Made by a program: the position numbers and the translations under genes. From Gemmatimonadales bacterium (GTDB lineage Bacteria; Gemmatimonadota; Gemmatimonadetes; Gemmatimonadales; GWC2-71-9), in the NCBI GenBank assembly GCA_050733215.1, contig JBOHSN010000006.1, positions 4,708 through 68,707 on the forward strand: a stretch of DNA of 64,000 bases, written 5' to 3'. Numbering within the stretch: the stretch's first letter is position 1; each line of letters opens with the position of its first letter. Positions 3,059-21,538 of this stretch are shown piece after piece. The notes beneath the pieces are model-generated. The model saw only the letters and a program-made list of their open reading frames with translations, was not told where the DNA came from and searched no databases.

Positions 3059-3721
3059 CTACAGCGTGTAGCCGATCCCGAACAGAACCCACGGCGACAA
3101 GTCCCATTCCGAGTCCTGCCCCGTGATGATGACTGGATCGGGCGGCTCGAGGAAGCTAGGCGGATAGGTGAGCTTCCAGAAGTTGGCGCGAAACTCGGCA
3201 CGGAGGTGCACCCGGTCGCCCAAGAACACGCGGGTGCCAGCCGTCGGGGCGAAGAAGAACTTCGTGCCGAAGTCGTACCCGCTGGTGTCGGCGGGCACCT
3301 TGCTCCCGAAGCCGAAGCCACCGGCCAGCCCGACGAACGGCGCGAACCCGTTCCAGGTCTTGCCGCCGGTCAGATTGAGTGTGACTAGGGCCTCCGCGAA
3401 CACGACCGACTGGTCCACCGGTCCCGTCACCTCATCGACGAACGGGTCCACGATGAGCCGTTCGAGCTGGCCATACGAGACGCCGAGTCCGAGCGCAAGC
3501 GCCCGGCCGGAACGGAAGTCGAAGCGGCCGCCGAAGGTCCAGCCGCCGTGGGGGCCCACGCCGACGTCGCCGCCGTTGCCGAGGAAACGGCCGCCGTGGA
3601 TCGTGATGCTGCTGCCCTGCTTGATGTCGCGGTAGGGGCTCTTCCGGGGGGCGTGCCCCACCTGCGCCGCGGCGATCGTGGGGGCGAGTGCGAGTGCGAG
3701 TGCGAGGCGGATCGGGCGCAT
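3059..3721 (-). CDS. Secreted outer-membrane beta-barrel-like hypothetical protein
   Basis: Starts at MRPIRLALALALAPTIAAAQ (signal peptide, AxA site), has an alternating beta-strand pattern and ends in an aromatic residue pattern (GIGYTL). The ATG at 3721 sits 3 nt after the gpmI stop. Confidence 0.6.
   Translation of the reverse strand: MRPIRLALALALAPTIAAAQVGHAPRKSPYRDIKQGSSITIHGGRFLGNGGDVGVGPHGGWTFGGRFDFRSGRALALGLGVSYGQLERLIVDPFVDEVTGPVDQSVVFAEALVTLNLTGGKTWNGFAPFVGLAGGFGFGSKVPADTSGYDFGTKFFFAPTAGTRVFLGDRVHLRAEFRANFWKLTYPPSFLEPPDPVIITGQDSEWDLSPWVLFGIGYTL
3684..3707. repeat. Hexamer tandem repeat GCGAGT x3.9, encoding (Leu-Ala)n of a signal peptide
   Basis: The plus strand reads gcgagtgcgagtgcgagtgcgagg and the minus strand encodes RLALALALAP. 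It is the reverse complement of the hexamer array at 19041..19064. Confidence 0.8.
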
Positions 3722-5277: not shown

Positions 5278-5313
5278 GGCTCTCCGCGTGGCCCGCTATT
5301 AGAATCCGCGACG

Positions 5314-6444
5314 GTGACTCAAGCGCCCCAATCTAGTCCTGCCCTCCGCCGGCTACCAGCCTGTGCGCTCGTGTGTTCGCTCGCGCTCGCGACACCGTTC
5401 GCGCGCGTGCTCGAGGCGCAGGACGACGCCCGCGCGACCCGTGACGCGCCGTTCGCGCGCGCCGCCGCCGGCACCGTGCTCGGCACGATGCGGAGCGGCG
5501 CGGAGGTGTCGGCCGGCCGCACGCGCGCCGGCTGGACCGAGGTGACGCTCGAGGGCTGGATCTACGAGCCGTCCGTGGGACGCGACCGGCGCGAGGGGTT
5601 CCAGATCGGCGTAGCGGCGCGGGGAGGGGAGAACCTGCGCGCGGAGCCGAACGGCCGTGTGCTCGCGCGGCTCCGCTATGGCGCGCTGCTCGAGCGCACC
5701 GGCGCCCGCGGCAACTGGGTGCGGGTGCGCCGCAAGGGTTGGGTTCCACGATCGGCCGTGGAGCGGGCGGTGGAGACGGCGGTGGCGCCTGCGGCGCGGC
5801 GGGAGAGGGCGGCAGAGGGCGGGAGAGGACCGGAAAGTGCGGCTGCTGCGACGGCCAGGCGCGACTCCACTCCGCCGGACACGTCCCGCCCTCTCCCGCC
5901 GTCTCCCGCCCCCTCCCGCCCTCCGGAGGAGTCCCGCATTCAGGTCACCCGATCGACCGCGCTCCACGCCGCTCCCGATGCCGCCGGGCTCGGCACCCTC
6001 CAGCCGGGGGTCGATGGCCGCGTGCTGGCGCGCGCGGGCGAGTGGGTGCGCGTGCAGCTCGAGGGCTGGGTGCGCGCAGCGGACGTCGGCCCGCCCGCCG
6101 ACGGCGCGATGGTGGGTGTCTCGGCGGCGGAGCTCCGGGCCGAGCCCGCGCGGTACGTCGGCCAGCTGGTCGAGTGGCGGCTCCAGTTCATTGCCGTTCA
6201 GGAGGCGGACGAGCTCCGGAGCGAACTCCCCGCCGGACAGCCCTTTCTGCTCACGCGGGGGCCACTGCCGGAGCCGGGCTTCGTCTATGTGATCCTGCCC
6301 CGCAACCAGGCGGAGCAGTTCCGCGCTCTTTCGGGGCTCCAGGAGCTGGTGGTCCACGTCAGGATCAGGGCGCCGCGCACGAAGTACCTGACCACCCCAG
6401 TGGTCGAGCTGAGCTCGGTGGTGAGTGGCCTGCCGGGGAAGTAG
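5314..6444 (+). CDS. Secreted hypothetical protein with two SH3-like (SH3_3) modules separated by a repeat-encoded linker
   Basis: An in-frame GTG at 5314 gives a signal-like N-terminus (LPACALVCSLALATPFARVLEAQ). GWTEVTLEGWI and GEWVRVQLEGWV are SH3b-like. The part of ORF 4822..6444 upstream of 5314 is antisense to gpmI. Confidence 0.6.
   Translation: MTQAPQSSPALRRLPACALVCSLALATPFARVLEAQDDARATRDAPFARAAAGTVLGTMRSGAEVSAGRTRAGWTEVTLEGWIYEPSVGRDRREGFQIGVAARGGENLRAEPNGRVLARLRYGALLERTGARGNWVRVRRKGWVPRSAVERAVETAVAPAARRERAAEGGRGPESAAAATARRDSTPPDTSRPLPPSPAPSRPPEESRIQVTRSTALHAAPDAAGLGTLQPGVDGRVLARAGEWVRVQLEGWVRAADVGPPADGAMVGVSAAELRAEPARYVGQLVEWRLQFIAVQEADELRSELPAGQPFLLTRGPLPEPGFVYVILPRNQAEQFRALSGLQELVVHVRIRAPRTKYLTTPVVELSSVVSGLPGK
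5799..5926. repeat. Inverted pair of decamer arrays (GCGGGAGAGG x3 / CCTCTCCCGC-like x3, 52-nt spacer) lying in frame inside a CDS
   Basis: 5799-5828 reads gcgggagagg gcggcagagg gcgggagagg. 5890-5919 reads cctctcccgc cgtctcccgc cccctcccgc. The same family occurs at 45621 and 53668. Confidence 0.85.
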
Positions 6445-6604
6445 GCTATCCGCTATCCGCTAACCGCTATCCGCTAACCGCTAACCGCTATCCGCTATCC
6501 GCTATCCGCTAACCGCTATCCGCTGTACCTTCCAACGAGTTACTGCGCGCGATGCCATCAACGCCCTGCGGATAGCGGATAGCCGATAGCGGATAGCGGA
6601 TAGC
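6445..6604. repeat. Inverted heptamer arrays: GCTAWCC x11 (6445-6521) and GGATAGC x5 (6570-6604), 43-48 nt spacer
   Basis: Direct reading. The arrays start 1 nt after the TAG stop at 6442-6444 and end 6 nt before the ATG at 6611. Confidence 0.95.
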
Positions 6605-6610
6605 CCCCAA

Positions 6611-6955
6611 ATGAACGACCTCCTCAGGCAACGCATTCTTCGCGCCCTGGACCGGCTCGATGACGAGCGGGCCTATCAGGCGTTGGACTACGTCGAGTTT
6701 CTCTCGAGCAGGTACGCGGCTCGCGCGCGGCCCTCCGGTCTGCTCGCGCAGCTCACCGAGGCCGTCGAAGATACGATGCGCGCAGGCAAGCTTCCGATCC
6801 AGGCGATCAGCGGCACCATGGGCGTGGTGGACAGCGCCGCCAAGGTCATGCGCGGCCTCGCCGCGGCGGGCCAGGCGGTGGTGGAGGAAGCGGTGAAGGC
6901 TGCGGCGCCGCCGCCACCGCCGCCACGCGCGCCGAGGGCCGATACGGCGAGCTGA
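6611..6955 (+). CDS. Hypothetical small protein (helical, with a Pro-rich tail)
   Basis: 114-aa ORF MNDLLRQRILRALDRLDDERAYQALDYVEFL... with a plausible amphipathic composition. I recognise no family and there is no obvious SD sequence. Confidence 0.45.
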   Translation: MNDLLRQRILRALDRLDDERAYQALDYVEFLSSRYAARARPSGLLAQLTEAVEDTMRAGKLPIQAISGTMGVVDSAAKVMRGLAAAGQAVVEEAVKAAAPPPPPPRAPRADTAS

Positions 6956-6966
6956 TCTCGTAGGGT

Positions 6967-6987
6967 CACTCGACACTCGACACTCAT
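6967..6987. repeat. Heptamer tandem repeat CACTCGA x3 (single arm)
   Basis: cactcga cactcga cactcat, in the 47-nt gap before the permease gene. Confidence 0.8.
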
Positions 6988-7002
6988 CAAGCGAGACTGA
7001 CT

Positions 7003-8487
7003 ATGGCCGCGCCCGCCCGGTCGGTGCCTCCGACTGCCCCCACCGCCTCCGATGAGTCGCAGTTCGTCCGCGGCATCGGACCACTGGCCGCCATCTCGCT
7101 GGTGGTCGGCTCGATGATCGGCTCCGGCATCTTCATCGTCGCCGCCGACATCAGCCGCCAGGTGGATGCGCTCGGCCCGGCGGGGCTCCTGCTCGTGTGG
7201 GCCGCCACCGCGGTCATCACGCTCGTGGGCGCGCTCACCTACGCCGAGCTCGCGGCGATGATGCCCAACGTGGGCGGGCAGTACGTGTTCCTGCGCGAGG
7301 GCCTGTCGCCCTCCATGGGCTTCCTCTACGGCTGGACGCTCTTCACCGTCATCCAGAGCGGGACCATCGCCGCGGTGGCCGTGGCCTTCGGCCGTTTCCT
7401 CGGGGTGGTGGTTCCCTCGATCACACCCGACGTCTTCCTCGACCTCGGCTCGTTCGCGATGCCGGGCGGCCGAATCCAGCTCGGCCTGTCCCCCCAGCGC
7501 GTTGTTGCGGTGGTGATGGTGGCGGTGCTCACCGCGGTGAACATCCGCGGCGTCCGGCTCGGCGCCGCCATCCAGACCAGCTTCACCGTCGCCAAGGTGG
7601 GCGCGCTGGCGGCCCTCGTCCTGCTCGGCCTCACCGTGTTCCGCCGGCCCGAGATCGCCGCTGCCAACTTCGGCGCGTTCTGGGGCACGGGGGACTGGGG
7701 GCTGGCCGTGCTGCCGGTGATCGGCGCCGCGATGGTGGGGTCGCTCTTTTCGAGCGATGCCTGGAACAACGTCACCTTCGCGGCGGCCGAGGTGCGCGAT
7801 CCGAAGCGGAACCTTCCGCTCGCGTTGGCCGTCGGGACCGGGTTTGTCGGCCTGGTCTACGTGATCACGAACGTCGCCTACCTCCACGTGCTGCCGTTTC
7901 AGGGCGTAGAGGGCGGCGCGGACGTGATCGCGCGCGGCATCCAGCACGCCACGCAGGACCGGGTCGGCACCGCGGCGATGGAGTCCATGGTCGGCCCGGT
8001 GGGTGCGACGCTGATGGCGATCGCGATCCTCGTGTCCACCTTCGGCTGCAACAACGGCCTGATCCTCGCCGGCGCGCGGGTCTATTACGCCATGGCGCGC
8101 GACGCGCTGTTCTTCCGGCGGGCCGGCACGCTGCACCCGGAGTTCCGCACGCCCGTTTTCGCGCTGGTCACCCAGGCAGTCTGGACGATGGTGCTCTGTG
8201 TGAGCGGCACCTACGGCGAGCTGCTCAACTACGTGGTGTTCGCGGCCCTCCTTTTCTATGCGCTCACCGCGGTCGCGCTGTTCCGCCTCCGCCGCACCCG
8301 GCCCGACGCGCCCCGGCCGGTGAAGGCGTTCGGCTACCCCGTGCTCCCGGCGCTCTACATCGTCGCGACCGCGTCCATCCTCGTGGTGCTGCTGGTGGAC
8401 CCGCAGCAGCGGCTCTACTCCGGACTCGGGCTGCTGCTGGTGCTGCTTGGTGTGCCGGTTTACTGGCTCTGGCGCAAGACGGCCTGA
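7003..8487 (+). CDS. APC-superfamily amino acid permease (LAT/APA-like)
   Basis: 494 aa with about 12 hydrophobic segments. N-terminal motif ISLVVGSMIGSGIF and AELAAMMPNVGGQYVF, typical of APC transporters. Confidence 0.9.
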   Translation: MAAPARSVPPTAPTASDESQFVRGIGPLAAISLVVGSMIGSGIFIVAADISRQVDALGPAGLLLVWAATAVITLVGALTYAELAAMMPNVGGQYVFLREGLSPSMGFLYGWTLFTVIQSGTIAAVAVAFGRFLGVVVPSITPDVFLDLGSFAMPGGRIQLGLSPQRVVAVVMVAVLTAVNIRGVRLGAAIQTSFTVAKVGALAALVLLGLTVFRRPEIAAANFGAFWGTGDWGLAVLPVIGAAMVGSLFSSDAWNNVTFAAAEVRDPKRNLPLALAVGTGFVGLVYVITNVAYLHVLPFQGVEGGADVIARGIQHATQDRVGTAAMESMVGPVGATLMAIAILVSTFGCNNGLILAGARVYYAMARDALFFRRAGTLHPEFRTPVFALVTQAVWTMVLCVSGTYGELLNYVVFAALLFYALTAVALFRLRRTRPDAPRPVKAFGYPVLPALYIVATASILVVLLVDPQQRLYSGLGLLLVLLGVPVYWLWRKTA

Positions 8488-8503
8488 CAACTGCAGCCGC
8501 GAA

Positions 8504-8570
8504 GGAACGCCAATGCACGCGAATGAGAGTCCATTCGCGCTCATTCGCGCAAATTCGCGGCTTCGGTTCC
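8504..8570. repeat. Hairpin of decamer repeats (CGCGAATGAG-type left arm; NNCATTCGCG x3 right arm)
   Basis: ggaacgccaatgcacgcgaatgagag / tccattcgcg ctcattcgcg caaattcgcg gcttcggttcc. The outer GGAAC...GTTCC ends also pair. Confidence 0.75.
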
Positions 8571-8643
8571 TGACAAGAAACCTGCCGAGCGCCGGCCCGT
8601 AGTGAGCCCGGCCCGATAGCTCCCACTCGAACCCCGGATACGC

Positions 8644-10437
8644 ATGTCCGTCCCCCTCATCCGGCGCGCGCTTTACGTCCTCGCGCCGACCGTCGCCGCC
8701 CTGACCGCCGCCTGTAGTCGCCCCGACGCCCAAGCCCGTACAACTACGAAGGATCCCGCCGCCGCCGTCACCGCGTTGGCGGACGAGTACTTCGCCGGGC
8801 TGATCGAGCGAATGCCCGAGATCGCGACCTTCTGGGGCCTGACCGACGCCCGCCATGACGGCATCTCGGACGCTTCGCCGGAGGCGCTCGCGCGCTGGGA
8901 GACACGGCAGGACGCATGGCTCGCGCGGGCGGCCGCACTCGACCAGGCCGCGCTCGACGGCACGCCGCAGGCCGTAACCTACGCCATCCTTCGCGAGTCG
9001 CTCGAGTCGGCCAAGCGCACCCGTGTGTGCCGTCCGCAGCTATGGGGCGTGAGCCAGCTCTTCGGGTGGCAGGTCGGGTATCCCCGGCTGGGCAGCCTCC
9101 AGCCGCTTGGCGACTCCGCCGGTCGGGCCCAGGCGCTCGACCGCTGGCGCGGGATCCCGGGGTTCGTGGACCAAAGCGTGGCCAACCTGCGGGAAGGTGT
9201 GCGGCTGGGCTATACCGCGCCGCGCGGGAATGTCGAGGCGGTGCTCGAGCAGGTGGACGCGCTCCTCGCCGCCGAGCCCGAGGCATCGCCGTTCGCGCTC
9301 ATGATTCGCCGCGACTCCACGCCGGCGTTCCGGGAGGCGCTCACGGCCATCGTGCGCGACGAGATCAATCCGGCGCTTCGGCGCTACCGCGCATACCTGG
9401 CCGACGAGTATCGTACGAAGGCACGTACCGACCCCGCGGTCGCCGCGCTGCCGAACGGCGGGGAGTGCTATCGCGCCGCTATCCGGAACTTCACCACTCT
9501 CGATCTGGCCCCGAAGGCGGTGCACGAGCTCGGCCTCCGGGAGATGGTGCGCATCGAGTCCGAGATGCGTGCCATCGGCGAGCGGAGCTTCGGCACGTCG
9601 GACGTGAAGCCGCTGCTGGAGCGGCTCCGCACCGATCCGAAATACACCTTCCGCTCGCGGGAGGAGATCATCCGTGTGGCCGAGGAAGCCACTGCGCGCG
9701 CCAAGGCCGCCGCGCCGAAGGTCTTCAACCGGATGCCCAAGGCCGACATGATCGTGGATCCCTGCCAGCCGTTCGAGGAGAAGTCCGGCTGCCCCGCGTC
9801 ATACAGCCAGGCGTCGGAGGACGGCACGCGCCCGGGCCGCTATCGCATCAACGCGGGAAGCCCCCGCACCACGCCCCGCGCCTCGGCCGAGGCCACGGCG
9901 TTCCACGAGGGGATCCCGGGCCACCATTTCCAGGTCGCGCTCGCGGCCGAGCGGCCGGGCGCGCATCCGCTGACCCGGTACCTGTTCAACAGCGGCTTCG
10001 GCGAGGGATGGGCGCTGTACGCCGAGCAGGTCGCCAACGAGCTGGGCTTGTATTCGTCCGACCTCGACCAACTGGGCCGTCTCTCCAGCGACGCGCTGCG
10101 GGCCTCACGCCTCGTCGTGGACGCGGGCATTCACGCGCTCGGCTGGAGCCGGCAGCAGGCGATCGATTACATGGTCGCGCACACGGCGGAGTCGAAGGCG
10201 TTCATCGAGTCGGAGGTGGATCGCTACATCATCCTCCCCGGCCAGGCCACGGCCTACATGGTGGGTCGGCTCGAGATCGAGCGGCTCCGCAAGGAAGCGG
10301 AGAAGCGGATGGGTGATCGCTTCGACATCCGCGCCTTCCACGACCGCGTGCTGGAGGACGGGAGCGTGCCGCTGTCGCTGCTCCGGCGGAAAATCGAGCG
10401 CTGGGCTGCCGAGGGGACGACGGCGCCGACGTCTTGA
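8644..10437 (+). CDS. DUF885 family lipoprotein (putative metallopeptidase-like)
   Basis: Lipobox LTAACS. The conserved DUF885 motif AFHEGIPGHHFQ is present and the 597-aa length is typical. Confidence 0.85.
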   Translation: MSVPLIRRALYVLAPTVAALTAACSRPDAQARTTTKDPAAAVTALADEYFAGLIERMPEIATFWGLTDARHDGISDASPEALARWETRQDAWLARAAALDQAALDGTPQAVTYAILRESLESAKRTRVCRPQLWGVSQLFGWQVGYPRLGSLQPLGDSAGRAQALDRWRGIPGFVDQSVANLREGVRLGYTAPRGNVEAVLEQVDALLAAEPEASPFALMIRRDSTPAFREALTAIVRDEINPALRRYRAYLADEYRTKARTDPAVAALPNGGECYRAAIRNFTTLDLAPKAVHELGLREMVRIESEMRAIGERSFGTSDVKPLLERLRTDPKYTFRSREEIIRVAEEATARAKAAAPKVFNRMPKADMIVDPCQPFEEKSGCPASYSQASEDGTRPGRYRINAGSPRTTPRASAEATAFHEGIPGHHFQVALAAERPGAHPLTRYLFNSGFGEGWALYAEQVANELGLYSSDLDQLGRLSSDALRASRLVVDAGIHALGWSRQQAIDYMVAHTAESKAFIESEVDRYIILPGQATAYMVGRLEIERLRKEAEKRMGDRFDIRAFHDRVLEDGSVPLSLLRRKIERWAAEGTTAPTS

Positions 10438-10493
10438 CGGCACCTTGACCGGAGCGGGGCAGCTTCCTCTCGTCTCCAGCGGGCGAGGGAATC

Positions 10494-10988
10494 ATGAGGT
10501 ACGCCGCGATGGGCGTGTGGTTCGTGCTGTGGGCGCCGGTGCTCGCCGCCCAGTCGGATGCACCGGGGCCGCGGGGCGTGACCGTGCTCACGGGGGTCGG
10601 GAACTCGTTGGGATGGTTCGGCGCTCAGGGCGAGCGGTACTTCGCCGGCGACCGGATATCCCTGTTCGCCGGACTGGGCTACACGCCCAATGTGGATGAG
10701 AATCCGTCAGGCGTCACGGTGGCGTCGGGGCTGCGCGGGTTCACCCGGGGAGACAAGCACCGGGGCTTCCTCGAGCTGTCAATCTCGCAGATCGCGATCC
10801 AGTCGGGAATCGAGCGCCGGTTGTATGGACCGGGGCTTCAGGCCGGCTGGCAATTCGTATCGCGCGGGGGGTTCACCGTCATGACCTCGGCGGGCCTGGG
10901 GTACATTCCGGCCGCGGACGTGAGCGAGCCGGTGCAATTGTTGATCGGGCTGGGACTCGGCTACACCTGGCGGCGCCCGCCGCCTTGA
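10494..10988 (+). CDS. Small secreted beta-barrel-like hypothetical protein
   Basis: Signal peptide [21 protein letters not shown], Gly/aromatic-rich alternating strands, and a GAGGGA SD-like sequence upstream. Confidence 0.5.
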
Positions 10989-11098
10989 TTTCGCCCAGAC
11001 CGGCCCGTAACTTCCGAGATGGCACCCACGACACTCGGCCCGCCAGGCGCCCCGCCGGGGCACCTGCGGGCCGTCGCGCATCCGTCACACGTTCCAGC

Positions 11099-12559
11099 AT
11101 GAGCCGAATCCGCCAGGCCGTCGGGCTCACCTTCGACGACGTACTCCTCGTGCCGCGGCATTCGACCGTGCATCCGCGCGAGGTTTCCACCCTGAGCCGG
11201 CTCACCCGCTCCATCCCGCTCAACATCCCGCTCATCTCCGCCGCCATGGACACCGTCACCGAAGCCGAAATGGCCATCGCCATGGCGCGCGCCGGAGGCA
11301 TCGGGGTGATCCACAAGAACATGACGATCGACCGCCAGGCGGCCGAAGTCGATCGGGTGAAGCGCAGCGAGAGCGGGATGATCCTCAACCCGATCACGCT
11401 GGGGCCCGAGCGTCCGGTGCGCGAGGCCTACGCGCTGATGCGGCGGTTCAAGATCTCGGGTGTCCCCATCGTGGACGGCGAGGGCCGCCTCATCGGGATC
11501 ATCACCAACCGCGATCTCCAGTTCGAGCGGAATCTCGACCAGCCGATTCGCGACGCGATGACGAAGGAAAAGCTCGTGACCGCGCCGGTCGGCACCGATC
11601 TCGACGAGGCCGAGCGGATCCTCGCGCGCCACCGTATCGAGAAGCTGCCGGTGGTGGACGCCAGGGGCGTGCTCAAGGGCCTGATCACGGTCAAGGACAT
11701 CTTCAAGCGCCGCGAGCATCCTGACGCCAACAAGGACCAGCACGGCCGTCTCCGGGTCGCTGCCGCCGTGGGTGGCGCGCCCGATGCCGTCACCCGCGCG
11801 CGCGCCCTGGTCGGCGCCGGCGTGGATGTGCTCTGCGTGGACTCGGCACACGGGCACAGCGAAGCCGTGCTCCAGGCGCTCGACGCCATCAAGGAGAGCT
11901 TCCCCGACGTCGAAGTCATCGCGGGCAACGTCGCCACCGAGGCGGGAGCGCGCGAGCTGGTCCGGCGCGGGGCCGACGCCGTCAAGGTGGGCATCGGTCC
12001 GGGCAGCATCTGCACCACCCGCGTGGTCACCGGCGTGGGTGTTCCGCAGGTCACCGCCATCCAGGACGCCGGGCGCGGCGCGGGCGACGTGCCGATCATC
12101 GCCGACGGCGGCATCAAGTACTCCGGCGACGTCGTCAAGGCGATCGCCGCCGGGGCGTCCGCCGCGATGATGGGATCGATGCTCGCTGGCACCGAGGAGA
12201 GCCCCGGCGAGGCGGTGCTGGCCGAGGGCCGGCGCTTCAAGATGATCCGCGGCATGGGCAGCCTGTCGGCCATGCAGGACGGCAGCGCCGACCGGTACTT
12301 CCAGGAAGGCGAGATGACGCCCACCAAGATGGTGCCCGAGGGCATCGAGGGCCGCGTCCCCTACAAGGGCCCGGTGGCCGACGTGCTCTTCCAGATGGTG
12401 GGCGGGCTCCGGAGCGGGATGGGGTACTGCGGCGTCGCCAACCTCGCGGCGCTCCAGTGCGACGTCGAGATGATCCGCGTAACCGCGGCGGGCCTGCGCG
12501 AGTCACACCCGCACGACGTCACGATTACGCGCGAAGCACCGAACTACAGTAAGCAGTGA
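11099..12559 (+). CDS. guaB: IMP dehydrogenase
   Basis: [22 protein letters not shown]..., a CBS pair, the catalytic [11 protein letters not shown] loop and GGIKYSGD. The ATG at 11099 lies inside ORF 10985..12559. Confidence 0.95.
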
Positions 12560-12683
12560 GCAGTAAGCAGTAAGCTGGGGATTCCGGTGCCCGGGCAGAT
12601 CCCGTACGCCCCCGCTCACCGCTTACCGCTCACCGTTTACTGCTCACCGTTTACTGCTCACTGCTCACTGCTCACTGCTCACC
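12548..12683. repeat. Inverted heptamer arrays: AGTRAGC x4 (12548-12575) and GCTYACY/GTTTACT x10 (12614-12683), 38-nt spacer
   Basis: Direct reading. The left arm contains the guaB stop codon (TGA 12557-12559). The right arm ends 17 nt before the permease ATG. Confidence 0.95.
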
Positions 12684-12700
12684 CCAACCAGAGGATCCCC

Positions 12701-14137
12701 ATGGATCTCTTCCGGCGGAAGAGCGTCACCGATCTCCAGGCCGAAGCCACGAGCGAGGGTGGCCTCAAGCGCTCGCTGGGCGCGTTCAATCTGGTGATGC
12801 TGGGCATCGGCGCCATCATCGGCACCGGCATCTTCGTGCTGACCGGCACGGTGGCCGCGCAGAACGCCGGCCCGGCGGTGGTGCTGTCGTTCGTGCTGGC
12901 CGGACTGGCGTCGATCTTCGCCGCGCTTTGTTACGCCGAGTTCGCCTCCGTCGTGCCGATCGCCGGCAGCGCGTACACCTACGGCTACGCCACGCTCGGC
13001 GAGTTCTTCGCCTGGATCATCGGCTGGGATCTGATCCTCGAGTACGCGCTGGGCGCGGTGACCGTCGCCATCGGCTGGTCGGGATACGTCGTGTCGTTTC
13101 TCAGGGACTTCGGCATCGTCATCCCGCCCCAGCTGACCGCCGCGCGGGGGAGCGTGGTGACGCTCGCCGACGGGTCCACAGTCACGGCGCTGTTCAACCT
13201 GCCGGCCGTGCTCATCGTCGCGCTGGTGACGGCGCTGCTGGTCGTCGGCATCCGCGAATCGGCCAACGTCAATAACGTGATCGTGGTGATCAAGGTGACG
13301 GTGGTGCTGCTGTTCATCGGTCTGGCGGCGCCGCACATCGTCCCGGAGAACTGGGTGCCATTCATCCCGCCAAACACCGGCGTCCGGGAGCACTTCGGCT
13401 GGACCGGCGTCGTGGCGGGCGCCGGCGTCGTGTTCTTCGCTTATATCGGCTTCGACGCCGTGAGTACCGCGGCCCAGGAAGCGAAGAACCCCCAGCGCGA
13501 CATGCCGATCGGCATCATCGGGTCGCTGATCGTGTGCACGATCCTCTACATCGTCGTGTCGGGCATCGCGGCGGGCGTGGTGCCCTACCGGGAACTCGAC
13601 GTGCCCGATCCGATCGCGCTCGTCGCGGATCGCGCTGGGCTCGGCTGGTTCGCGACGCTGATCAAGGTCGGCGCGATCGCGGGCCTGAGCTCGGTGATCC
13701 TGGTGATGCTCCTCGGCCAGGCCCGCGTCTTCTACTCGATGTCGAACGACGGGCTGCTTCCGCCGTTCGTGAACAAGATCCACCCCCGCTTCCGCACGCC
13801 CTGGCTCACCCAGATCCTCACCGGGATTGCGGTGGTCATACCCGCCGCGCTGCTGACGGTCCGCGAGGCGGGCTCGCTGGTGTCCATCGGCACGCTGCTG
13901 GCATTCGTCATCGTTTCCATCGGCATCATCGCGCTGCGCATCCGTGAGCCCAACCTGCCGCGGCCGTTCAAGACGCCGGCCGTCTGGGTCGTCGCGCCGC
14001 TCGGAGCGCTGACCTCGTTCTACCTGATGTATTTCCTTCCGTGGCGAACCTGGGAGCGGCTGCTCATCTGGCTCGCGATCGGGCTGGTGATCTATTTCGC
14101 GTACGGCAGGACGCACTCGAAGCTGGCAAAGCGGTGA
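12701..14137 (+). CDS. APC-superfamily amino acid permease (cationic amino acid transporter-like)
   Basis: Starts at MDLFRRKSVTDLQAE, with a GAGGA SD at 12691. Contains the motif YAEFASVVPIAGSAYTY. The 38 codons of ORF 12587 upstream of this start are a translation of the repeat array. Confidence 0.9.
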   Translation: MDLFRRKSVTDLQAEATSEGGLKRSLGAFNLVMLGIGAIIGTGIFVLTGTVAAQNAGPAVVLSFVLAGLASIFAALCYAEFASVVPIAGSAYTYGYATLGEFFAWIIGWDLILEYALGAVTVAIGWSGYVVSFLRDFGIVIPPQLTAARGSVVTLADGSTVTALFNLPAVLIVALVTALLVVGIRESANVNNVIVVIKVTVVLLFIGLAAPHIVPENWVPFIPPNTGVREHFGWTGVVAGAGVVFFAYIGFDAVSTAAQEAKNPQRDMPIGIIGSLIVCTILYIVVSGIAAGVVPYRELDVPDPIALVADRAGLGWFATLIKVGAIAGLSSVILVMLLGQARVFYSMSNDGLLPPFVNKIHPRFRTPWLTQILTGIAVVIPAALLTVREAGSLVSIGTLLAFVIVSIGIIALRIREPNLPRPFKTPAVWVVAPLGALTSFYLMYFLPWRTWERLLIWLAIGLVIYFAYGRTHSKLAKR

Positions 14138-14164
14138 GACCCAGGGTGAGCTTACTATTCCCCC

Positions 14165-15184
14165 ATGCCGACGCTGACTGCCGAGGAGCTGGCCGCCGCC
14201 GAGGCGCTCGCCGCCGTCTTCCAATGCGGCCAGCGCGTCTGCCTCACCACCCACGTCAACCCGGATGGCGACGGCCTCGGCAGCGAAGCCGCGCTGGCGC
14301 ATCTCCTCCGCGCCCGCGGCCTCGAGGTGAGCGTCACCAACCCCACGCCGACTCCCGCCCGCTTCCGGTTCCTCTTCGAGGAGCTTCCCGGCGTGGACCG
14401 CACCGGCGAGGCAGTGAAGGAGATCCGCCGAGCCGATGTCATCGTCGTGCTCGACATCTCCGAGCTCGGCCGGCTCGGCATGCTCGCGGAGCCGGTGCGG
14501 GAACGCGGGGTGCCGGTCGCCTGTATCGACCATCACGTAAGCCCGGGGATCCTCCCGCCGGGTCCGCGGTACCTGGACCCCACCGCCTCGGCCACCGGCG
14601 AGCTGGTGTTCGAGGTGGCGAAGGCCAACGGCTGGCGGCTCGAACAGCCGGCGGCCCGCGGCCTGTACGTCGCCCTGCTCACCGACACCGGCGGCTTCCG
14701 CTTCAGCAACACGCATCCACGCACGCTGCGCATCGCCGCGGAGCTGCTCGAGACCGGGCTCGACCCCGAGGGCATCTATCTCGATGTCTACGCGCGGGCG
14801 CCCGAAGGCCGGCCCAGACTTCTCGCCGAAGCGCTCCAGACGCTGGTGGTCGAGCCCGAAGTCGGTCTCGCCTGGGTGACGGTGCCGCCCGGTGCGGTGG
14901 AACGGTTCGGCCTCACCTCGGATGATCTGGATGGAGTGGTCGAGTACCCCAGGTCGGTGGATGGCGTGCGCATGGCCCTGCTGTTCCGTGAGGTGTCGGC
15001 GGGGCGGGTAAAGGTGTCGCTGCGCTCGGTCGGGAGCGTGGATGTCGCCGCGTTTGCGCGGCAGTTCGGCGGGGGCGGGCACACCAAGGCCGCCGGCCTG
15101 GCCGTGGTCGGCTCGCTGGGGGAGGTCCAGGCGACGGTGCTCAGCGCTGCCCGGACGTACCTGGCGGGAAATGGACGCCCATGA
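14165..15184 (+). CDS. nrnA: DHH/DHHA1 phosphoesterase (NrnA-like oligoribonuclease / pAp phosphatase)
   Basis: Motifs HVNPDGDGLGS, IDHH and GGGGH (DHHA1). Confidence 0.8.
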   Translation: MPTLTAEELAAAEALAAVFQCGQRVCLTTHVNPDGDGLGSEAALAHLLRARGLEVSVTNPTPTPARFRFLFEELPGVDRTGEAVKEIRRADVIVVLDISELGRLGMLAEPVRERGVPVACIDHHVSPGILPPGPRYLDPTASATGELVFEVAKANGWRLEQPAARGLYVALLTDTGGFRFSNTHPRTLRIAAELLETGLDPEGIYLDVYARAPEGRPRLLAEALQTLVVEPEVGLAWVTVPPGAVERFGLTSDDLDGVVEYPRSVDGVRMALLFREVSAGRVKVSLRSVGSVDVAAFARQFGGGGHTKAAGLAVVGSLGEVQATVLSAARTYLAGNGRP

Positions 15185-15235
15185 CCTCCGGGGCGGCATA
15201 TTGCCGACAACGGCGCTAGGAATTAGCCTCAGATC

Positions 15236-15466
15236 ATGGAGATCATCGACCGCATCGAGCGCACCCTCGATCTGCTTCGTCCCTACATCGCCTCCCACCG
15301 CGGCAATGTGGAGGTGGTGGATTTCGACGAGGGGGAGGGCCGGCTGCTGCTCCGCCTGGGCGGCACCTGCCATGGGTGCAGCGCGTCGACTGTCACCCTG
15401 AAGCAGGGGATCGAGCTCCGGCTCCGCGAGCTGGTACCGGAAGTGAAGACCGTCGACGCCGTCTGA
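15236..15466 (+). CDS. NifU C-terminal-domain Fe-S assembly protein
   Basis: 76 aa with CHGC (GTCHGCSAS), typical of the Nfu/NifU C-terminal domain. Confidence 0.8.
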   Translation: MEIIDRIERTLDLLRPYIASHRGNVEVVDFDEGEGRLLLRLGGTCHGCSASTVTLKQGIELRLRELVPEVKTVDAV

Positions 15467-15473
15467 GCCTCCC

Positions 15474-16580
15474 GTGACCGAGTCCCTCCAGGCGCGGGTC
15501 ATCGCCGCGCTTTCCCGCATCCAGAACCCCCGTCTCGACGCCGACCTGCTCTCCGCCGGCATGGTGCGGGACCTTGTGGTCACGCCCGAGGGCGCGGTGT
15601 CATTCACGTTCCTGCTCTCGCGCGAGGACCCAGCGACACTGGTACGCGAGGCCCGGAACGCGGTGAGCGGGGTGGAAGGCGTTCGGCGCGAGGACGTGAA
15701 GATCTCGGTGGCCGATCCGGCCGGCCCCGCTCGCGCTACCCACGCGCCACCCGGCGCGGTGCCGGCCAATATTGCCCCGCCCCCGCCGCCGGAGCAGCCG
15801 AACCTCGGCCGGATCATCGCGGTCTCCTCGGGCAAGGGTGGTGTGGGCAAGTCCACCGTGGCCGCGAACCTCGCGGTGGCGCTGGCAGAGGCGGGGCACG
15901 CAGTCGGAATCATGGACGCCGACATCTACGGGCCCAACATCCCGCGCATGTTCGGCGTGTTCGACAAGCCGCCGGTGTTCGGCGGGCGGATTCAACCGCT
16001 CGCCGCCCACGGGGTCAAGCTGATGTCGCTGGGGTTCCTGGTTGAGCGTGACGCCCCCGCCATCTGGCGCGGTCCGATCATCATGAAGGTCGTGCAGCAG
16101 TTCCTGCGCGACGTGGACTGGGGCCGCCTGGATTATTTCCTGGTGGATCTTCCGCCGGGCACGGGCGACGCGCAGCTCTCACTGGTGCAGTCCACCCACG
16201 TCTCCGGCGCGCTGATCGTGACGACACCGCAGGAGGTGGCCGTGGGCGACGCCCTCAGAGGCGCCCGGATGTTCGAGCGCGTGGGGGTCCCGGTGCTGGG
16301 CGTGGTCGAGAACATGAGCGGCTATACCGATCCGGAGACCGGCCGCCGCGTCGAGTTCTTCGGGTCGGGCGGCGGGCGCCGGCTGGCGGAGGAGATCGGC
16401 GCGCCCCTCCTCGGCGAAGTGCCGCTCCAGCCTCGTCTGGCCCTGCATGCCGACGAGGGTCGGCCGGTCCTCGTGGCCGAGCCCGAGAGCCCCGCCGCCC
16501 TCACCCTCCGCGCGATCGCGGACGCGCTCGTCAAGGAGGCCGGCGGTCGGGTGGTCGAGCTGCCGATTCTCCGGGGCTAG
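15474..16580 (+). CDS. apbC: Mrp/NBP35 (ApbC) Fe-S cluster carrier ATPase
   Basis: N-terminal DUF59-like segment, a deviant Walker A SGKGGVGKST, and the overall Mrp pattern (DLPPGTGD, ENMS). Confidence 0.9.
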   Translation: MTESLQARVIAALSRIQNPRLDADLLSAGMVRDLVVTPEGAVSFTFLLSREDPATLVREARNAVSGVEGVRREDVKISVADPAGPARATHAPPGAVPANIAPPPPPEQPNLGRIIAVSSGKGGVGKSTVAANLAVALAEAGHAVGIMDADIYGPNIPRMFGVFDKPPVFGGRIQPLAAHGVKLMSLGFLVERDAPAIWRGPIIMKVVQQFLRDVDWGRLDYFLVDLPPGTGDAQLSLVQSTHVSGALIVTTPQEVAVGDALRGARMFERVGVPVLGVVENMSGYTDPETGRRVEFFGSGGGRRLAEEIGAPLLGEVPLQPRLALHADEGRPVLVAEPESPAALTLRAIADALVKEAGGRVVELPILRG

Positions 16581-16605
16581 TCGGCTCCTCACGATCCAGC
16601 CGGCG

Positions 16606-16743
16606 TTTTTCACCGCAGAGACGCAGAGGCGCAGAGATATCGCAGAGTATTCGTTGTGGTCTCATGTCAGGAGATCCGAATGCTTGGCGTGAGGCCACAA
16701 CAATTCAGCAGTTCTCTGCGTCTCCGCGCCTCTGCGTGAAAAA
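16606..16743. repeat. About 138-nt imperfect hairpin built from octamer repeats (CGCAGAGR x3-4 / YCTCYGCG x3) with an inner inverted repeat TTGTGGTCTCA...TGAGGCCACAA
   Basis: Left arm tttttcaccgcagagacgcagaggcgcagaga. Right arm ttctctgcgtctccgcgcctctgcgtgaaaaa. Inner arms at 16654-16664 and 16690-16700. Confidence 0.85.
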
Positions 16744-16760
16744 TCCGGCGAACAAGTCCG

Positions 16761-17525
16761 ATGCCAATCATCACGCTGCTGACCGACTTCGGCACCCGTG
16801 ACGCCTACGTCGGCGAGCTGCGCGGTGTGCTCCTTACGCGGGCGCCCGGCGCGGTCCTCGCCGACATCACCCACGACATCGCGCCGGGCGACGTGCGGGC
16901 CGCCGCGTACGTGCTTGGCCGCACGTGGCCGAAATTCCCGGCCGGGACCGTGCACCTGGCCGTTGTCGATCCCGGCGTTGGCGGCGCGCGCGCGGCGCTC
17001 GCGATCCGGTCTGCCGGACATCATTTTGTCGGGCCCGACAACGGACTGTTGACTTCGGCGCTCACCGGCGCGCACGACGTCGTCGAGCTGCCGATTCCTC
17101 CCTCGGCGTCGGCCACGTTTCACGGACGCGACGTATTCGCGCCCGCCGCCGCTGCGCTGGCCGGCGGCACGCCCATGACCACGCTGGGCTCACCCCCTCT
17201 CAGGGTTCCGGTGCGGCTTCCGCCCGCCCTGCCGCGCAGTGAGGGGGACAGCCTGGTTGGCGAGGTGGTCTACGTGGACCGCTACGGCACGCTGGTGACG
17301 AACCTCGCGCCTGATGCCGGCGGCTTCGTGGAAATCGGCGGCTCGCGTCTGCCGCTCCGGCGCACGTTCAGCGACATCGCGCCGGGTGAGCTGGTGGCGT
17401 TCGTGGGTTCCGGCGGAGTGATCGAGATCGCGGTGCGGGACGGGTCGGCCGCGGAGCGGCTCGGTGCAGCGGTTGGAGCTTCGGCGCGCCTGGTACGGCC
17501 CCCAGGGAACGTCAGCCGCGAATGA
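16761..17525 (+). CDS. SAM hydrolase / SAM-dependent halogenase family protein (DUF62)
   Basis: MPIITLLTDFGTRDAYVGELRGV... and VVDPGVG are hallmark N-terminal motifs of this family. Confidence 0.8.
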   Translation: MPIITLLTDFGTRDAYVGELRGVLLTRAPGAVLADITHDIAPGDVRAAAYVLGRTWPKFPAGTVHLAVVDPGVGGARAALAIRSAGHHFVGPDNGLLTSALTGAHDVVELPIPPSASATFHGRDVFAPAAAALAGGTPMTTLGSPPLRVPVRLPPALPRSEGDSLVGEVVYVDRYGTLVTNLAPDAGGFVEIGGSRLPLRRTFSDIAPGELVAFVGSGGVIEIAVRDGSAAERLGAAVGASARLVRPPGNVSRE

Positions 17526-17565
17526 ACCCGAATCGACGCGACAACTGCAGCGGAGCGCCGCGGCT

Positions 17566-18189
17566 CTAACCCGAGCTCGTTCCGGTACCGCCCGCCTCCG
17601 CCAGCGGTTCGCCGCGTATTCTCCCCACTACGCGCTTGAAGAATCCGACCAGCTTCCACATTAGAAGCACGCAGAGGATCACGAGCACCACGACGATGGC
17701 GCCGGTGAGCACCGGATGCTCTGCGGCGAGCCACGCCAGCCCGATGGCCAGCATGTCCTCGACCGCGCTCAGGATCCAGTTGCTGAACGGCTCCGGGCTC
17801 GTGTTGGCCGCCGCGCGGGTAGTCGCCTTCGCGCCGTGCGAGGTGAGCGCGACACCACCCGCGAGGAGCGCCGCGCTCAGCTTCCAGCCCTCGGGCACGT
17901 CGCCGAACGCGCCGTATGCGAGGAGGGCGGCCGCGGGCGGCCGGATGAACGTGTGGATGGTGTCCCACGCGCTGTCCACGACCGGGATCTTGTCGGCGAC
18001 GAACTCGACCACGAAGAGCCCCAGGGCGATTCCCCAGACGATCGGCTGCGCGAGAACCTGGAGGGCAGGGGGAAGCTGGAAGACGCCGAAATGCTGGAGC
18101 AGCCCCGCGGCGGCGACAGTGGCGTAGAGGTTCAGCCCTGAGGCGAAGGAGGTGCCGAGCGTCCACCCCAGCGTTTCGAGCGGCGACAT
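17566..18189 (-). CDS. DUF4126 membrane protein
   Basis: 207 aa and multi-pass. The N-terminus ...FASGLNLYATVAAAGLL... and FVADKIPVVDS resemble DUF4126. Confidence 0.65.
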   Translation of the reverse strand: MSPLETLGWTLGTSFASGLNLYATVAAAGLLQHFGVFQLPPALQVLAQPIVWGIALGLFVVEFVADKIPVVDSAWDTIHTFIRPPAAALLAYGAFGDVPEGWKLSAALLAGGVALTSHGAKATTRAAANTSPEPFSNWILSAVEDMLAIGLAWLAAEHPVLTGAIVVVLVILCVLLMWKLVGFFKRVVGRIRGEPLAEAGGTGTSSG

Positions 18190-18193
18190 GCCA

Positions 18194-19072
18194 TCAATTT
18201 ACCCACTCGACCCGGACCGCACCGACGCTGCACTTGAGCGCGATGTCGAGGTGCGGCTCGGCGGGGTCGAAGTCACGCGTGATCCACGAGCCGCCGCGCT
18301 GGACCAGCCCCTCCGAATCGAAGCTGGACAGGAACTTGTCCATCGTGATCCGCACGGGGGCCCGCTTCGGGAGCCGGAGGCGAAGTTCGCCCATCGACAG
18401 CGTGAGCTCGACCGTCTGGGTCGCGGTCCACACGCCGCCGAAATCAAGCGTGAGCTTCCCGACGCCGCCCTCGACCTTCACCTTCTCGCAGCGGCTGTTG
18501 CCCAATCGGTAGATCGCGAGGTCCGCCGCGCCTGCGGCGAAGATGGCGGAGTGGCAGCGGGTCCGGTTGGGGGCGGAGAAGCGGACGCTGGCCCGGCTCG
18601 CGCCGGTCTCGAGGCGCACGCTCGCGATGCGGAGCCCGCCGAGGTCCAGGTCGGCCTCGCCGGCGCCGAGGTTGAGGTCGAGCGCGAGATCGGCCCTGGG
18701 TGAGAGCTCCACGACGGCCTTCTGCCGGAGCTGATTCTTGGAAACCACGCGGAGCCCCGCGCGTCCGGCCGACTCCACGCCGAGCCGCACCGTGGCAGCG
18801 GGCGCCGCATAGTGGCTCAGCGGGACGAAGCGGTCGGCATCGTAGGAGAGGTGCATCCGGTAGAGCTCGCCGTCCCGGCCAGGCACCACCTTGAGCAGCC
18901 CCGCGGCGAACTCGAGCTGGGCATCGAGCTTGGTTTCACCGTGGAGCTGCCGGAACGTGGAATACGGGCGCCAGCTCTGCGCCGACGCCGCGCCCGTCCA
19001 GCCGAGCAGCGCGCCCGCCGCGGCAACGCCGGTCGCCCATACTCGCACTCGCACTCGCACTCGCACCGGCAC
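18194..19072 (-). CDS. Secreted beta-rich protein, DUF4097/toastrack-like (putative adhesin fold)
   Basis: Signal-like WATGVAAAGALLGWTGAASAQS, then repeated LxLxxGxGxxxLDLGG strands. The start is ambiguous: five in-frame GTGs (19072-19048) lie inside a hexamer repeat. Confidence 0.45.
   Translation of the reverse strand: MPVRVRVRVRVWATGVAAAGALLGWTGAASAQSWRPYSTFRQLHGETKLDAQLEFAAGLLKVVPGRDGELYRMHLSYDADRFVPLSHYAAPAATVRLGVESAGRAGLRVVSKNQLRQKAVVELSPRADLALDLNLGAGEADLDLGGLRIASVRLETGASRASVRFSAPNRTRCHSAIFAAGAADLAIYRLGNSRCEKVKVEGGVGKLTLDFGGVWTATQTVELTLSMGELRLRLPKRAPVRITMDKFLSSFDSEGLVQRGGSWITRDFDPAEPHLDIALKCSVGAVRVEWVN
19041..19064. repeat. Hexamer tandem repeat ACTCGC x4 (minus strand GTGCGA x4, encoding VRVRVRVR)
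   Basis: Direct reading. It is the reverse complement of the array at 3684..3707 and lies at the 5' end of the CDS 18194..19072. Confidence 0.8.
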
Positions 19073-19077
19073 CAGCT

Positions 19078-20848: not shown

Positions 20849-20885
20849 AAGTGAGCCCCTTTACGATGGCGGTGATGGGAAGGTT

Positions 20886-21485: not shown

Positions 21486-21538
21486 TGCGGCTCCCCGCGC
21501 TTGCGGAGCGGTCCGAGCGGGCGGTACATTGAGCGCCT

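Follow-up and report, generated by a model that had tools for sequence, protein, structure and literature searches.

The Stop-Bearing Heptamer Array at the 3′ End of guaB as a Probable Member of a Class of Inverted Short Tandem Repeats in Gemmatimonadales

Introduction

Does a tandem array of stop-bearing heptamers lying across the stop codon of a gene serve to stop translation, or are its stop triplets incidental to a repeat of another nature? This question is raised by the junction between guaB, encoding inosine monophosphate (IMP) dehydrogenase, and an amino-acid permease gene in a 64-kb stretch of contig JBOHSN010000006.1 of a Gemmatimonadales bacterium (the whole analyzed stretch of 64,000 nt, hereafter the window; G+C = 70.1%). 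At this junction, four heptamers of the RGTRAGC type are followed by a spacer and by ten heptamers complementary to them. In the original prediction, which was made from the sequence of the window, the module was regarded as a bidirectional insulator of translation and transcription. According to the present analysis, which covered the window and related loci, the array is, with a probability of roughly 0.55, one copy of a class of inverted short tandem repeats ("hairpin microsatellites") distributed across Gemmatimonadales, which would have grown by slippage, would be similar to repetitive extragenic palindromic (REP) sequences if functional at all, and would carry stop triplets as a by-product.

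Results

The guaB–Permease Junction

The elements of the junction are as follows:

11096–12559, plus strand: guaB (IMP dehydrogenase, IMPDH), 97% identical to GuaB of uncultured Gemmatimonadales metagenome-assembled genomes (MAGs).
12548–12575, plus strand: 5′ arm, four purine-rich RGTRAGC units (sequence; Tandem Repeats Finder, TRF).
12576–12613: unique spacer (loop) of 38 nt with self-complementary edges (GGGGAT...ATCCC).
12614–12683, plus strand: 3′ arm, ten pyrimidine-rich GYTYACY units complementary to the 5′ arm (sequence; TRF).
12690–12703, plus strand: Shine–Dalgarno (SD)-like AGAGGA (12690–12695) and ATG (12701) of the permease gene (sequence).
12701–14137, plus strand: amino-acid permease gene (Pfam AA_permease_2, E = 5.6e-58).

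On the plus strand, the 5′ arm consists of the units AGTAAGC, AGTGAGC, AGTAAGC and AGTAAGC, and its stop triplets (TAA 12550, TGA 12557, TAA 12564 and TAA 12571) occupy all three reading frames, in agreement with the original prediction. The guaB open reading frame (ORF), which starts at 11096, uses the second of them: its final codons and stop (AGT AAG CAG TGA) lie inside units 1 and 2 of the array, the C-terminus is ...APNYSKQ, and the stop codon is TGA 12557–12559. The ten units of the 3′ arm, of the types GCTCACC, GCTTACC, GTTTACT and GCTCACT, contain no plus-strand stops and ten minus-strand TGA or TAA triplets in all three frames, as had also been described. Since 7 is not divisible by 3, a stop triplet passes through all frames within three copies, and this part of the earlier reasoning is arithmetically right. 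The proposed fusion of the array to a hairpin was borne out as well: the arms are 83–93% complementary, and the RNA minimum free energy of the 12530–12700 region was −61.9 kcal/mol (z = −4.3), with 0 of 200 shuffled sequences folding as stably. Both arrays were reported by TRF, and with four units in the 5′ arm and ten in the 3′ arm the module is a tandem array of at least two heptamers. The spacer sequence is kept only in the closest relative, L001. The permease ATG lies 17 nt beyond the 3′ arm.

Other features of the junction do not correspond to those of a stop signal or a terminator. No in-frame back-up stop for guaB was found: the next in-frame stop after TGA 12557 is at 14135, so readthrough would proceed in frame across the module and the whole permease ORF up to that position, and the additional in-frame stop that characterizes a tandem stop signal is thus absent. 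No gene converges on the module. The tail following the stem (CCCAACCAGAGG) is not a U-tract, and the 38-nt spacer is not a short loop.

Abundance and Diversity of the Modules

The sample comprised the window and 80 guaB neighbourhoods from different Gemmatimonadales species (1.23 Mb), that is, 1.29 Mb in total. Arrays were identified by TRF, and genes were identified by a simple caller based on codon statistics, which assigned 91% of the sequence to coding regions and gave approximate starts. Two mutually complementary arrays no more than 250 nt apart were considered a module, the detection of which depends on the TRF thresholds. It should be noted that the 80 loci have orthologous junctions in common, and the counts are therefore not fully independent.

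Arrays with a period of 7 and at least 2.8 copies accounted for 137 TRF rows in 1.29 Mb versus 19 after shuffling, i.e., their abundance is far above chance. Non-overlapping period-7 arrays numbered 108 in the intergenic 9% of the sequence and 28 in the 91% called as coding; period 8 was second (31 intergenic arrays), and periods 6 and 9 were rare outside genes. In the window and the 80 loci, 56 inverted modules were found, with very diverse units of 7, 8, 9 or 10 nt, among which were GGTGAGC, GGTGAAC, GTGAAAA, GAGGAGT, GAGAGGG, GGGAACG, GAGTCAC, GCCAGTC, GACGATG and GCTATCC, together with 8-mers sharing the core GGCGG and longer units (9- and 10-mers, e.g., GGCGGGAGAG). Regardless of the unit, the architecture of the class is the same: purine-rich units of 7, 8, 9 or 10 nt in tandem are separated by a unique spacer from a complementary array rich in pyrimidines. 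An assembly artefact is an unlikely source of these sequences, since a read is longer than the arrays, which are present in MAGs from many independent projects.

The GGCGG core was found in most of the 8-mer units (GGCGGAAA, GGCGGAAC, GGGCGGTC, GGGCGGTA and GGCGGACA), originating from loci L012, L017, L030, L041, L043 and L050, and in the 10-mer GGCGGGAGAG, the 10-mers being those at 5797 and 53667 in the window. Judging by the unit sequences, this suggests that units with the GGCGG core form a second superfamily next to the GGTGAGC-like heptamers. Loci L021, L036 and L045, labelled as MAGs of Chloroflexia, Bacillota and Methylomirabilota, had GuaB 84–85% identical to that of the window and the same gene order, and these contigs are probably mis-binned Gemmatimonadales.

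Position, Orientation and Folding

The 5′ arm was purine-rich (more than 60% A+G) in 48 of the 56 modules and pyrimidine-rich in only 3, and the same rule held for stop-free units. Because a module is a palindrome, the purine-first order holds on both strands and represents an intrinsic polarity. Among the 51 typed modules, 46 (~90%) were located between co-directional genes, and two of the three modules typed as divergent proved to be artefacts of a missed gene (5260–6444). The corrected counts were 1 module in 100 divergent spacers, 2 in 73 convergent spacers and ~48 in 1028 co-directional spacers, with no enrichment between convergent genes.

Measured from the end of the preceding stop codon, the start of the entering arm had a median position of about −2 nt; the median length of the module with its flanks was 116 nt. 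The spacer remaining outside the module had a median of 16.5 nt (interquartile range 1–35) versus 29 nt in array-free co-directional junctions, and such a residual spacer of ~16 nt is too short for a promoter of the downstream gene. For unpaired arrays, the distance was 2 nt to the upstream stop when they were purine-rich and 25 nt to the next start when they were pyrimidine-rich. The modules thus fill otherwise minimal co-directional junctions, from the upstream stop codon to just before the next ribosome-binding site (RBS).

The stems had a mean length of 37 bp and a mean energy of −60 kcal/mol, and the loops measured tens of nucleotides. A U-tract after the stem was absent as a rule, at least five T in the next 10 nt being found in only 4 of 52 modules. 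A scan of 5001–25000 for sigma-70 promoter and terminator consensus sequences gave no match at any module, and Rfam 15 at gathering thresholds revealed no family anywhere in the window. An intrinsic terminator was accordingly rejected as a candidate (no U-tract, loops of tens of nucleotides, no match in the terminator scan and no Rfam family). No signature of a sense RNA was revealed either: 22 modules folded more stably in the sense orientation and 24 in the antisense orientation (Wilcoxon p = 0.65), with 105 G–U pairs in sense versus 117 in antisense. If the sense transcript were selected, mismatches compatible with G–U pairing would be expected to accumulate in the transcribed orientation; since they have not accumulated, the result fits a strand-symmetric process, such as slippage with hairpin-templated correction. 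RNA-specific selection, which this comparison did not demonstrate, may nonetheless operate, as in very long stems a few mismatches hardly count.

Turnover of the Modules and Their Units

Modules are gained, lost and resized rapidly between close relatives, and their units drift while the arms stay complementary. At the orthologous guaB junction of the 80 species, a module was present in some and absent in many, including L004, whose GuaB is 97% identical. In L003, the same junction contained a one-unit hairpin, TGAGCAGCG-TT-CGCTGCTCA, with a 9-bp stem containing the TGA stop. At the junction following the permease gene, the window carried, within 27 nt (14138–14164), a single GGTGAGC together with an incomplete complement of it (TTACT), and L001 carried 6 + 3 units (L001 8110–8200); this pair is a direct example of expansion or contraction. 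At the junction following a gene for an SH3-like protein, a module was found in 7 of 23 species and was built of four different units; in the remaining species the spacer was short or absent, with the stop codon overlapping the next ATG in L014. The arms always co-varied (GGTGAGC/GCTCACC, GGTAAGC/GCTTACC, GGTGAAC/GTTCACC, GTGAAAA/TTTTCAC and GAGGAGT/ACTCCTC). Taken together, the one-unit seeds and the resized relatives point to modules that expand and contract in place, with arms evolving in concert.

Units also recurred within genomes. Identical units at separate sites were found in 11 of 136 within-genome pairs versus 42 of 6192 between-genome pairs, i.e., ~12 times more often, and when one mismatch was allowed, 15 within-genome pairs were obtained versus 6.3 ± 2.5 in permutations, a value reached by 4 of 1000. 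Within the 64-kb window, GGTGAGC-type units occupied four loci and GGCGGGAGAG two or three. The spacers of modules sharing a unit were unrelated (12576–12613 versus 55899–55965).

Stop Triplets in the Arrays

Three further sites in the window, given as 23917, 55862 and 61412, had been considered to follow the same logic as the guaB module:

23915–24016, plus strand: stop-bearing module between ubiD and ubiA, GAGGTGA × 3.6, spacer, CCGCTCA/CGTCTCA × 4.6.
55876–56008: GGTGAGC × 3, 67-nt spacer, GCTCACC/GCTTACC × 5; stop pattern at 55876–55898.
61410–61434, plus strand: lone direct array GCGGTGA × 3.6, supplying the hisC stop (TGA 61421); hisB starts at 61443.

The stop pattern was confirmed at all three (23915–23941, 55876–55898 and 61410–61434), and array-supplied stops end three genes of the window, namely guaB, ubiD (on the third TGA, 23933) and hisC. 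The equivalence of the sites was not. The 55876 module lies between divergent genes, a minus-strand lipoprotein-like ORF and a plus-strand DUF5686 ORF; it adjoins two gene 5′ ends and no gene 3′ end, and no ORF runs into the array. The 61410 array has no complementary arm. It should be noted that the longest ORF of the DUF5686 gene has a candidate start at ATG 55908, just past a GGAGG in the module spacer, and from this start the spacer and 3′ arm (55899–56008, plus strand) would be translated as a signal-peptide-like N-terminus (MMTQCVVRGLAVWTVPLLVYCLPLTAHRSPLTAQ).

In the survey, of the 75 arrays in co-directional spacers that were nearest the upstream stop, 23 had sense-strand stops in all frames and 34 had none, whereas of the 48 arrays nearest the next start, 4 had stops in all frames and 37 had none (all-frame-stop arrays at gene ends versus starts, Fisher odds ratio 4.9, p = 0.0035). 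The supposed enrichment of stop-bearing arrays at gene ends is thus real relative to gene starts and does not exist relative to stop-free arrays at gene ends: in the surveyed 1.29 Mb the latter were at least as common (34 versus 23 with stops in all frames), which is essentially the outcome that the original prediction itself had named as speaking against it. Moreover, this enrichment is inseparable from the purine-first polarity, which is common to stop-free units. The median distance to the stop codon was −2 nt for single arrays with all-frame stops versus +4.5 nt for those without stops, and for modules it was −1.5 nt (stop-bearing) versus −2 nt (stop-free; Mann–Whitney p = 0.34). No stop triplet on either strand was present in 25 of the 56 modules, and with 34 of 75 gene-end arrays lacking a sense-strand stop, the stop triplet is not a consistent property of the class at gene ends.

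Within the RGTRAGC family, the core triplets were TGA (123), TAA (42) and TGG (7). The possibility that the T-R-A core is kept for the sake of the stop was rejected, since the A at unit position 5 is equally conserved in the T-less units GGGGAGA, GGGGAAC and GGAGAGG. The stops in RGTRAGC look incidental and do not define the class.

Stop-Free Modules and Their Translation

Four modules of the window that had passed unmentioned in the original prediction contain zero stops on both strands:

5797–5924, plus strand: stop-free 10-mer inverted module within the conserved ORF 5260–6444, encoding a variable linker.
16614–16737, plus strand: stop-free 8-mer module, CGCAGAGA × 3 followed by TCTCTGCG-like units, between two co-directional genes.
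22284–22403, plus strand: stop-free 9-mer module, ACAGAGAAC followed by GTTCTCTGT, between ubiE-like and ubiD genes.
53667–53793, minus strand: stop-free 10-mer module, GGCGGGAGAG followed by CCTCTCCCGC, entered by trpE.

The trpE gene (53733–55268, minus strand) reads through the entering arm of the 53667–53793 module and stops in its spacer at 53733, thereby acquiring a repeat-coded C-terminal tail (AGEGERGRERAGEAGTPPA; C-terminus ...LALALAAGEGERGRERAGEAGTPPA). ORF 5260–6444 (plus strand) encodes a conserved, secreted SH3-like-repeat protein of ~390 aa, orthologues of which were found across the 80 loci. The module at 5797–5924 (GGCGGGAGAG followed by TCCCGCCCTC) encodes part of a hypervariable linker of this protein, and a different 10-mer module (GAGCCGGCGG) is present at the matching place of the L004 orthologue. 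Thus, a stop-free arm abutting or invading an ORF is simply translated, which supports the view that the stops determine what is tolerated.

Other Arrays of the Window

Ten sites with such repeats were recorded in the window. Two modules in addition to those described above were as follows:

6445–6606, plus strand: module of the rare opposite orientation, GCTATCC/GCTAACC × 11, spacer, GGATAGC × 5 (sequence; TRF).
8498–8559, plus strand: short 10-mer inverted module, CGCGAATGAA followed by CATTCGCGCA, starting 10 nt past the stop of an amino-acid permease gene.

The first of these lies between the stop (TAG 6442) of the SH3-like protein gene and ATG 6611. Several arrays outside modules were also observed. 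Hexamer arrays GCGAGT × 3.8 (3684–3706) and ACTCGC × 4.3 (19041–19066) are mutual reverse complements located 15 kb apart, each lying at the 5′ end of a minus-strand gene or close to it. A G-rich 10-mer periodicity (GAGGGCGGGA-like, 3.4 copies) occurs at 45621–45654 inside a glmM-like gene (44786–46180), with a single CTCCCGC nearby. An unpaired CGGTCGT × 3.4 array (42399–42422), stop-free on both strands and lacking a complementary arm, is located 10 nt past the stop of a minus-strand gene for a pyridoxal-phosphate (PLP) enzyme of Cys/Met metabolism (42433–43614).

Discussion

Origin and Possible Role of the Modules

The reading preferred here is that of hairpin microsatellites, in which a small hairpin just past a stop codon would expand by 7-nt replication slippage in both arms; the one-unit hairpin of L003, with its 9-bp stem containing TGA, may be a surviving seed stage. 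Hairpin-templated correction, selection for pairing or the two combined would keep the arms complementary, and purifying selection would confine the arrays to the space between the stop codon and the RBS and keep them out of promoters. Transcribed within a polycistronic mRNA, the module would fold into a long stem (mean 37 bp, −60 kcal/mol), looping out the inserted sequence so that the stop and start codons would stand ~16 nt apart at its base. If active at all, it would probably be an intercistronic stem of the type known from REP sequences and bacterial interspersed mosaic elements (BIME), blocking 3′ exonucleases or providing a site for processing, and would not be a terminator. The stop triplets would be a by-product of a purine-rich unit with one T abutting the stop codon, and they may act as a filter of tolerance, in that a stop-bearing array may overrun the gene end and slip by ±7 nt with few C-terminal residues changed, whereas a stop-free unit would instead add a repeat-coded tail or linker.

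Several points weigh against this reading. The home-made gene caller missed at least one real gene (5260–6444). That one unit occurs at several loci whose spacers are unrelated suggests dispersal or a trans-acting process beyond local slippage. The consensus unit of the 5′ arm was stop-bearing in 26 of the 56 modules versus 17.1 ± 2.8 expected from composition shuffling, and this excess, modest but significant when counted per module, may leave room for some selection for stops; it came wholly from one GGTGAGC-like superfamily, and at the family level, where it was not significant, the values were 4.1 observed versus 3.2 ± 1.4 expected. A DNA mechanism that treats both strands alike does not account for the 48:3 bias in orientation, which implies a filter at the level of RNA or translation. 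Such a filter may consist in avoiding free C-rich RNA that loads Rho after the stop codon or in avoiding SD-like repeats directly before start codons, and the stops themselves, with their effect on tolerance, may also contribute. Finally, the REP-like role is one that we infer.

Alternative Explanations

Possible, and clearly less probable than hairpin microsatellites, is that the modules are positively selected intercistronic RNA stems analogous to REP/BIME, which would set the relative expression of neighbouring cistrons through protection of the upstream mRNA from 3′ exonucleases, RNase III sites or partial termination, the tandem build being only the way in which the stem is made. Very stable stems at gene 3′ ends within operon-type junctions, the survival of arm complementarity through unit turnover and the depletion of modules from divergent (promoter) spacers are consistent with such a role, as is the finding that Xanthomonas transcripts start or stop at similar repeats more often than at controls (PMC4692102). 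However, the sense strand is no better paired than the antisense strand, modules appear and disappear between relatives with 97% identity, convergent junctions are not enriched, and some modules are translated through, which would melt the stem.

It is unlikely, although the orientation bias and the within-genome recurrence of units would then find the explanation that simple slippage does not provide, that the modules constitute an actively maintained system, in which a lineage-specific trans-acting factor would recognize, seed or homogenize genome-specific units at operon junctions. Equally doubtful is the further component of this explanation, a purine-first hairpin coupling or uncoupling neighbouring cistrons with stop-bearing units as one favoured solution, and the same low expectation applies to the particular roles that may be proposed for it: a stop and a start held together at the stem base, C-rich RNA hidden from Rho, or an RNase III site.

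Within-genome sharing of units at ~12 times the between-genome rate, with GGTGAGC-type units and GGCGGGAGAG recurring in the window, would also be expected of copies of mobile or enzyme-dispersed elements similar to REP doublets (REPIN) with REP-associated tyrosine transposases (RAYT) or to miniature inverted-repeat transposable elements (MITE). This origin is quite improbable: the spacers of unit-sharing modules are unrelated, copy number shifts in place, starting from seeds of one unit, neither target-site duplications nor terminal inverted repeats were seen, and no transposase was found among the 20 window proteins scanned with Pfam in a partial survey. A MITE in particular was rejected, as there is no shared internal sequence and the copy number changes in place.

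Little likelihood is left to the insulator of the original prediction, i.e., a heptamer array purpose-built as a stop in any frame and fused to a hairpin so as to insulate translation and transcription in both directions. It accounts for the stops in all three frames on both strands of the entering arm, for the termination of guaB, ubiD and hisC on array stops, for the enrichment of all-frame-stop arrays at gene ends versus starts (odds ratio 4.9) and for the 26 stop-bearing units versus 17.1 expected. Nevertheless, stop-free modules are common and stop-free arrays at gene ends are at least as frequent as, and about as close as, stop-bearing ones; guaB has a single in-frame stop with no back-up; and there is neither a U-tract nor, with a residual spacer of ~16 nt, room for a downstream promoter. 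The supposed stopping of minus-strand ribosomes has no object, since ~90% of the modules lie between co-directional genes, with no converging gene and hence no minus-strand ribosomes to stop. In addition, the 55876 module is located at two gene 5′ ends, the 61410 array lacks a hairpin partner, and the GGGAATC units of Xanthomonas, which in their published form we read as stop-free, are biased toward the same position (PMC4692102), which is independent evidence that stops do not place the arrays.

A G-quadruplex (G4) or other non-B DNA, as proposed for G-rich heptamers of Xanthomonas and Nostoc, is hardly credible for the class, since the repeated GGG tracts of GGCGGGAGAG and of GAGAGGG-type arrays and the formation of G4 in vitro by GGGAATC oligonucleotides (PMC4692102) are set against G runs of one or two bases at most in RGTRAGC, the lack of G tracts in GTGAAAA, GAGTCAC, GCTATCC, GACGATG and many other units, and arm complementarity as the feature common to all modules. 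Given many unit families, most of them without G4 potential, the hairpin and not the quadruplex is the common denominator. The data thus argue against both the G-quadruplex and the stop-codon insulator as unifying explanations.

Comparison with Known Systems

REP/BIME of enterobacteria are intergenic, hairpin-forming, genome-specific repeats, often arranged as inverted pairs at gene 3′ ends inside operons; they stabilize the upstream mRNA and are dispersed by RAYT transposases, and a REP is a single imperfect palindrome of ~35 nt conserved genome-wide, including its inner part. The Gemmatimonadales modules are similarly intergenic and hairpin-forming and have genome-specific units. In contrast to REP, they are tandem arrays in which only the arm units are common to the copies, and in place of a palindrome of ~20–40 nt they contain 7-nt non-palindromic direct repeats. 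Nor do they have the conserved interior, terminal inverted repeats and target-site duplication of a MITE, since their spacers are unrelated and their copy number changes in place. Intrinsic terminators have a short loop (3–8 nt) and a U-tract directly after the stem, whereas the stems of the modules are ~30–40 bp long, with loops of tens of nucleotides and the next start within ~20 nt. To our knowledge, heptamer tandem repeats, such as the short tandemly repeated repetitive (STRR) sequences, the long simple sequence repeats (LSSR) and GGGAATC, have been known in bacteria for decades, and none has an established function.

According to the work on LSSR (Mrazek et al. 2007, as summarized in PMC4679880 and PMC4692102), heptanucleotides are the most abundant class of long simple sequence repeats (SSR) in many genomes; as reported in the former of these papers, their excess was attributed to polymerase slippage, with units of a length not divisible by three being excluded from coding sequence. 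Heptamers are also known among cyanobacterial STRR, including the heptanucleotides of Calothrix PCC7601 (cited in PMC4679880 and PMC4692102). The Gemmatimonadales repeats resemble LSSR in the predominance of intergenic period 7 over period 8 and in the rarity of periods 6 and 9, whereas their paired, inverted, purine-first architecture lies outside the definition used in the LSSR and STRR surveys of direct arrays, as these are summarized in the two papers.

The TAACTGA direct heptamers of marine Beggiatoaceae, Cyanobacteria and Bacteroidetes (MacGregor 2015, Front Microbiol, PMC4679880) are intergenic, and carry forward-strand stops in all three frames, so that any overlap with an ORF can involve only its extreme end; such an overlap includes the upstream stop codon in 13 ORFs. 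In the BOGUAY genome, most of them immediately precede start codons, and it was proposed that a translational regulator acts at these sites. RGTRAGC arrays share with them the intergenic location and the stops in all three frames. However, TAACTGA arrays are direct, with only one indirect (inverted) set reported (PMC4679880), and involve one unit across phyla, whereas the Gemmatimonadales modules are inverted and have many lineage-specific units.

The closest likeness is to the GGGAATC heptamers of Xanthomonas (Rehm et al. 2015, PLoS One, PMC4692102), which are tandem, strongly intergenic and typically consist of ~4 units, with related GGGGA(C/T)T repeats in Nostoc. They occur between aligned ORFs and rarely between divergent ones; the G-rich strand is the sense strand when the array lies within 50 bp of the stop codon or overlaps it, and the C-rich strand is found just upstream of the next ORF. 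Each genome has 70–75 inverted pairs with stem-loop potential, length and sequence vary extensively between close relatives, and the function was left unresolved (PMC4692102). The guaB module is similar in its heptamer arrays, its inverted pairing and the purine-rich sense strand of its first array, which extends across the guaB stop between two plus-strand genes (guaB and the permease gene); such a position is general across the modules. The differences concern the host phylum (Gemmatimonadota), the stop triplet carried by the RGTRAGC family as against a unit that we read as stop-free, and the number of units: in place of a single dominant unit with a GGG tract and a G4 interpretation, Gemmatimonadales have dozens of families of 7–10 nt, most of them incapable of forming G4. 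The guaB module itself, with no GGG in RGTRAGC, lacks the GGG tract in at least four units that a G4 would need.

A literature search found no description of such repeats in Gemmatimonadetes. Gemmatimonadales offer an unusually rich natural experiment, with dozens of units sharing one architecture, orientation rule and position and with turnover between near-identical genomes, in which general features (arm complementarity, purine-first order and abutment on the stop codon) can be told from particular ones (G4 potential and stop triplets). It should also be noted that the arrays rewrite the 3′ ends of genes, supplying stops, repeat-coded tails and linkers, and can mislead gene callers and the annotation of MAGs. 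In comparison with the known systems, the architecture of the Xanthomonas type and heptamers with stops in all frames (TAACTGA, 2015) had already been described, whereas the inverted SSR modules of Gemmatimonadales differ in their many unit families, including 8- to 10-mers.

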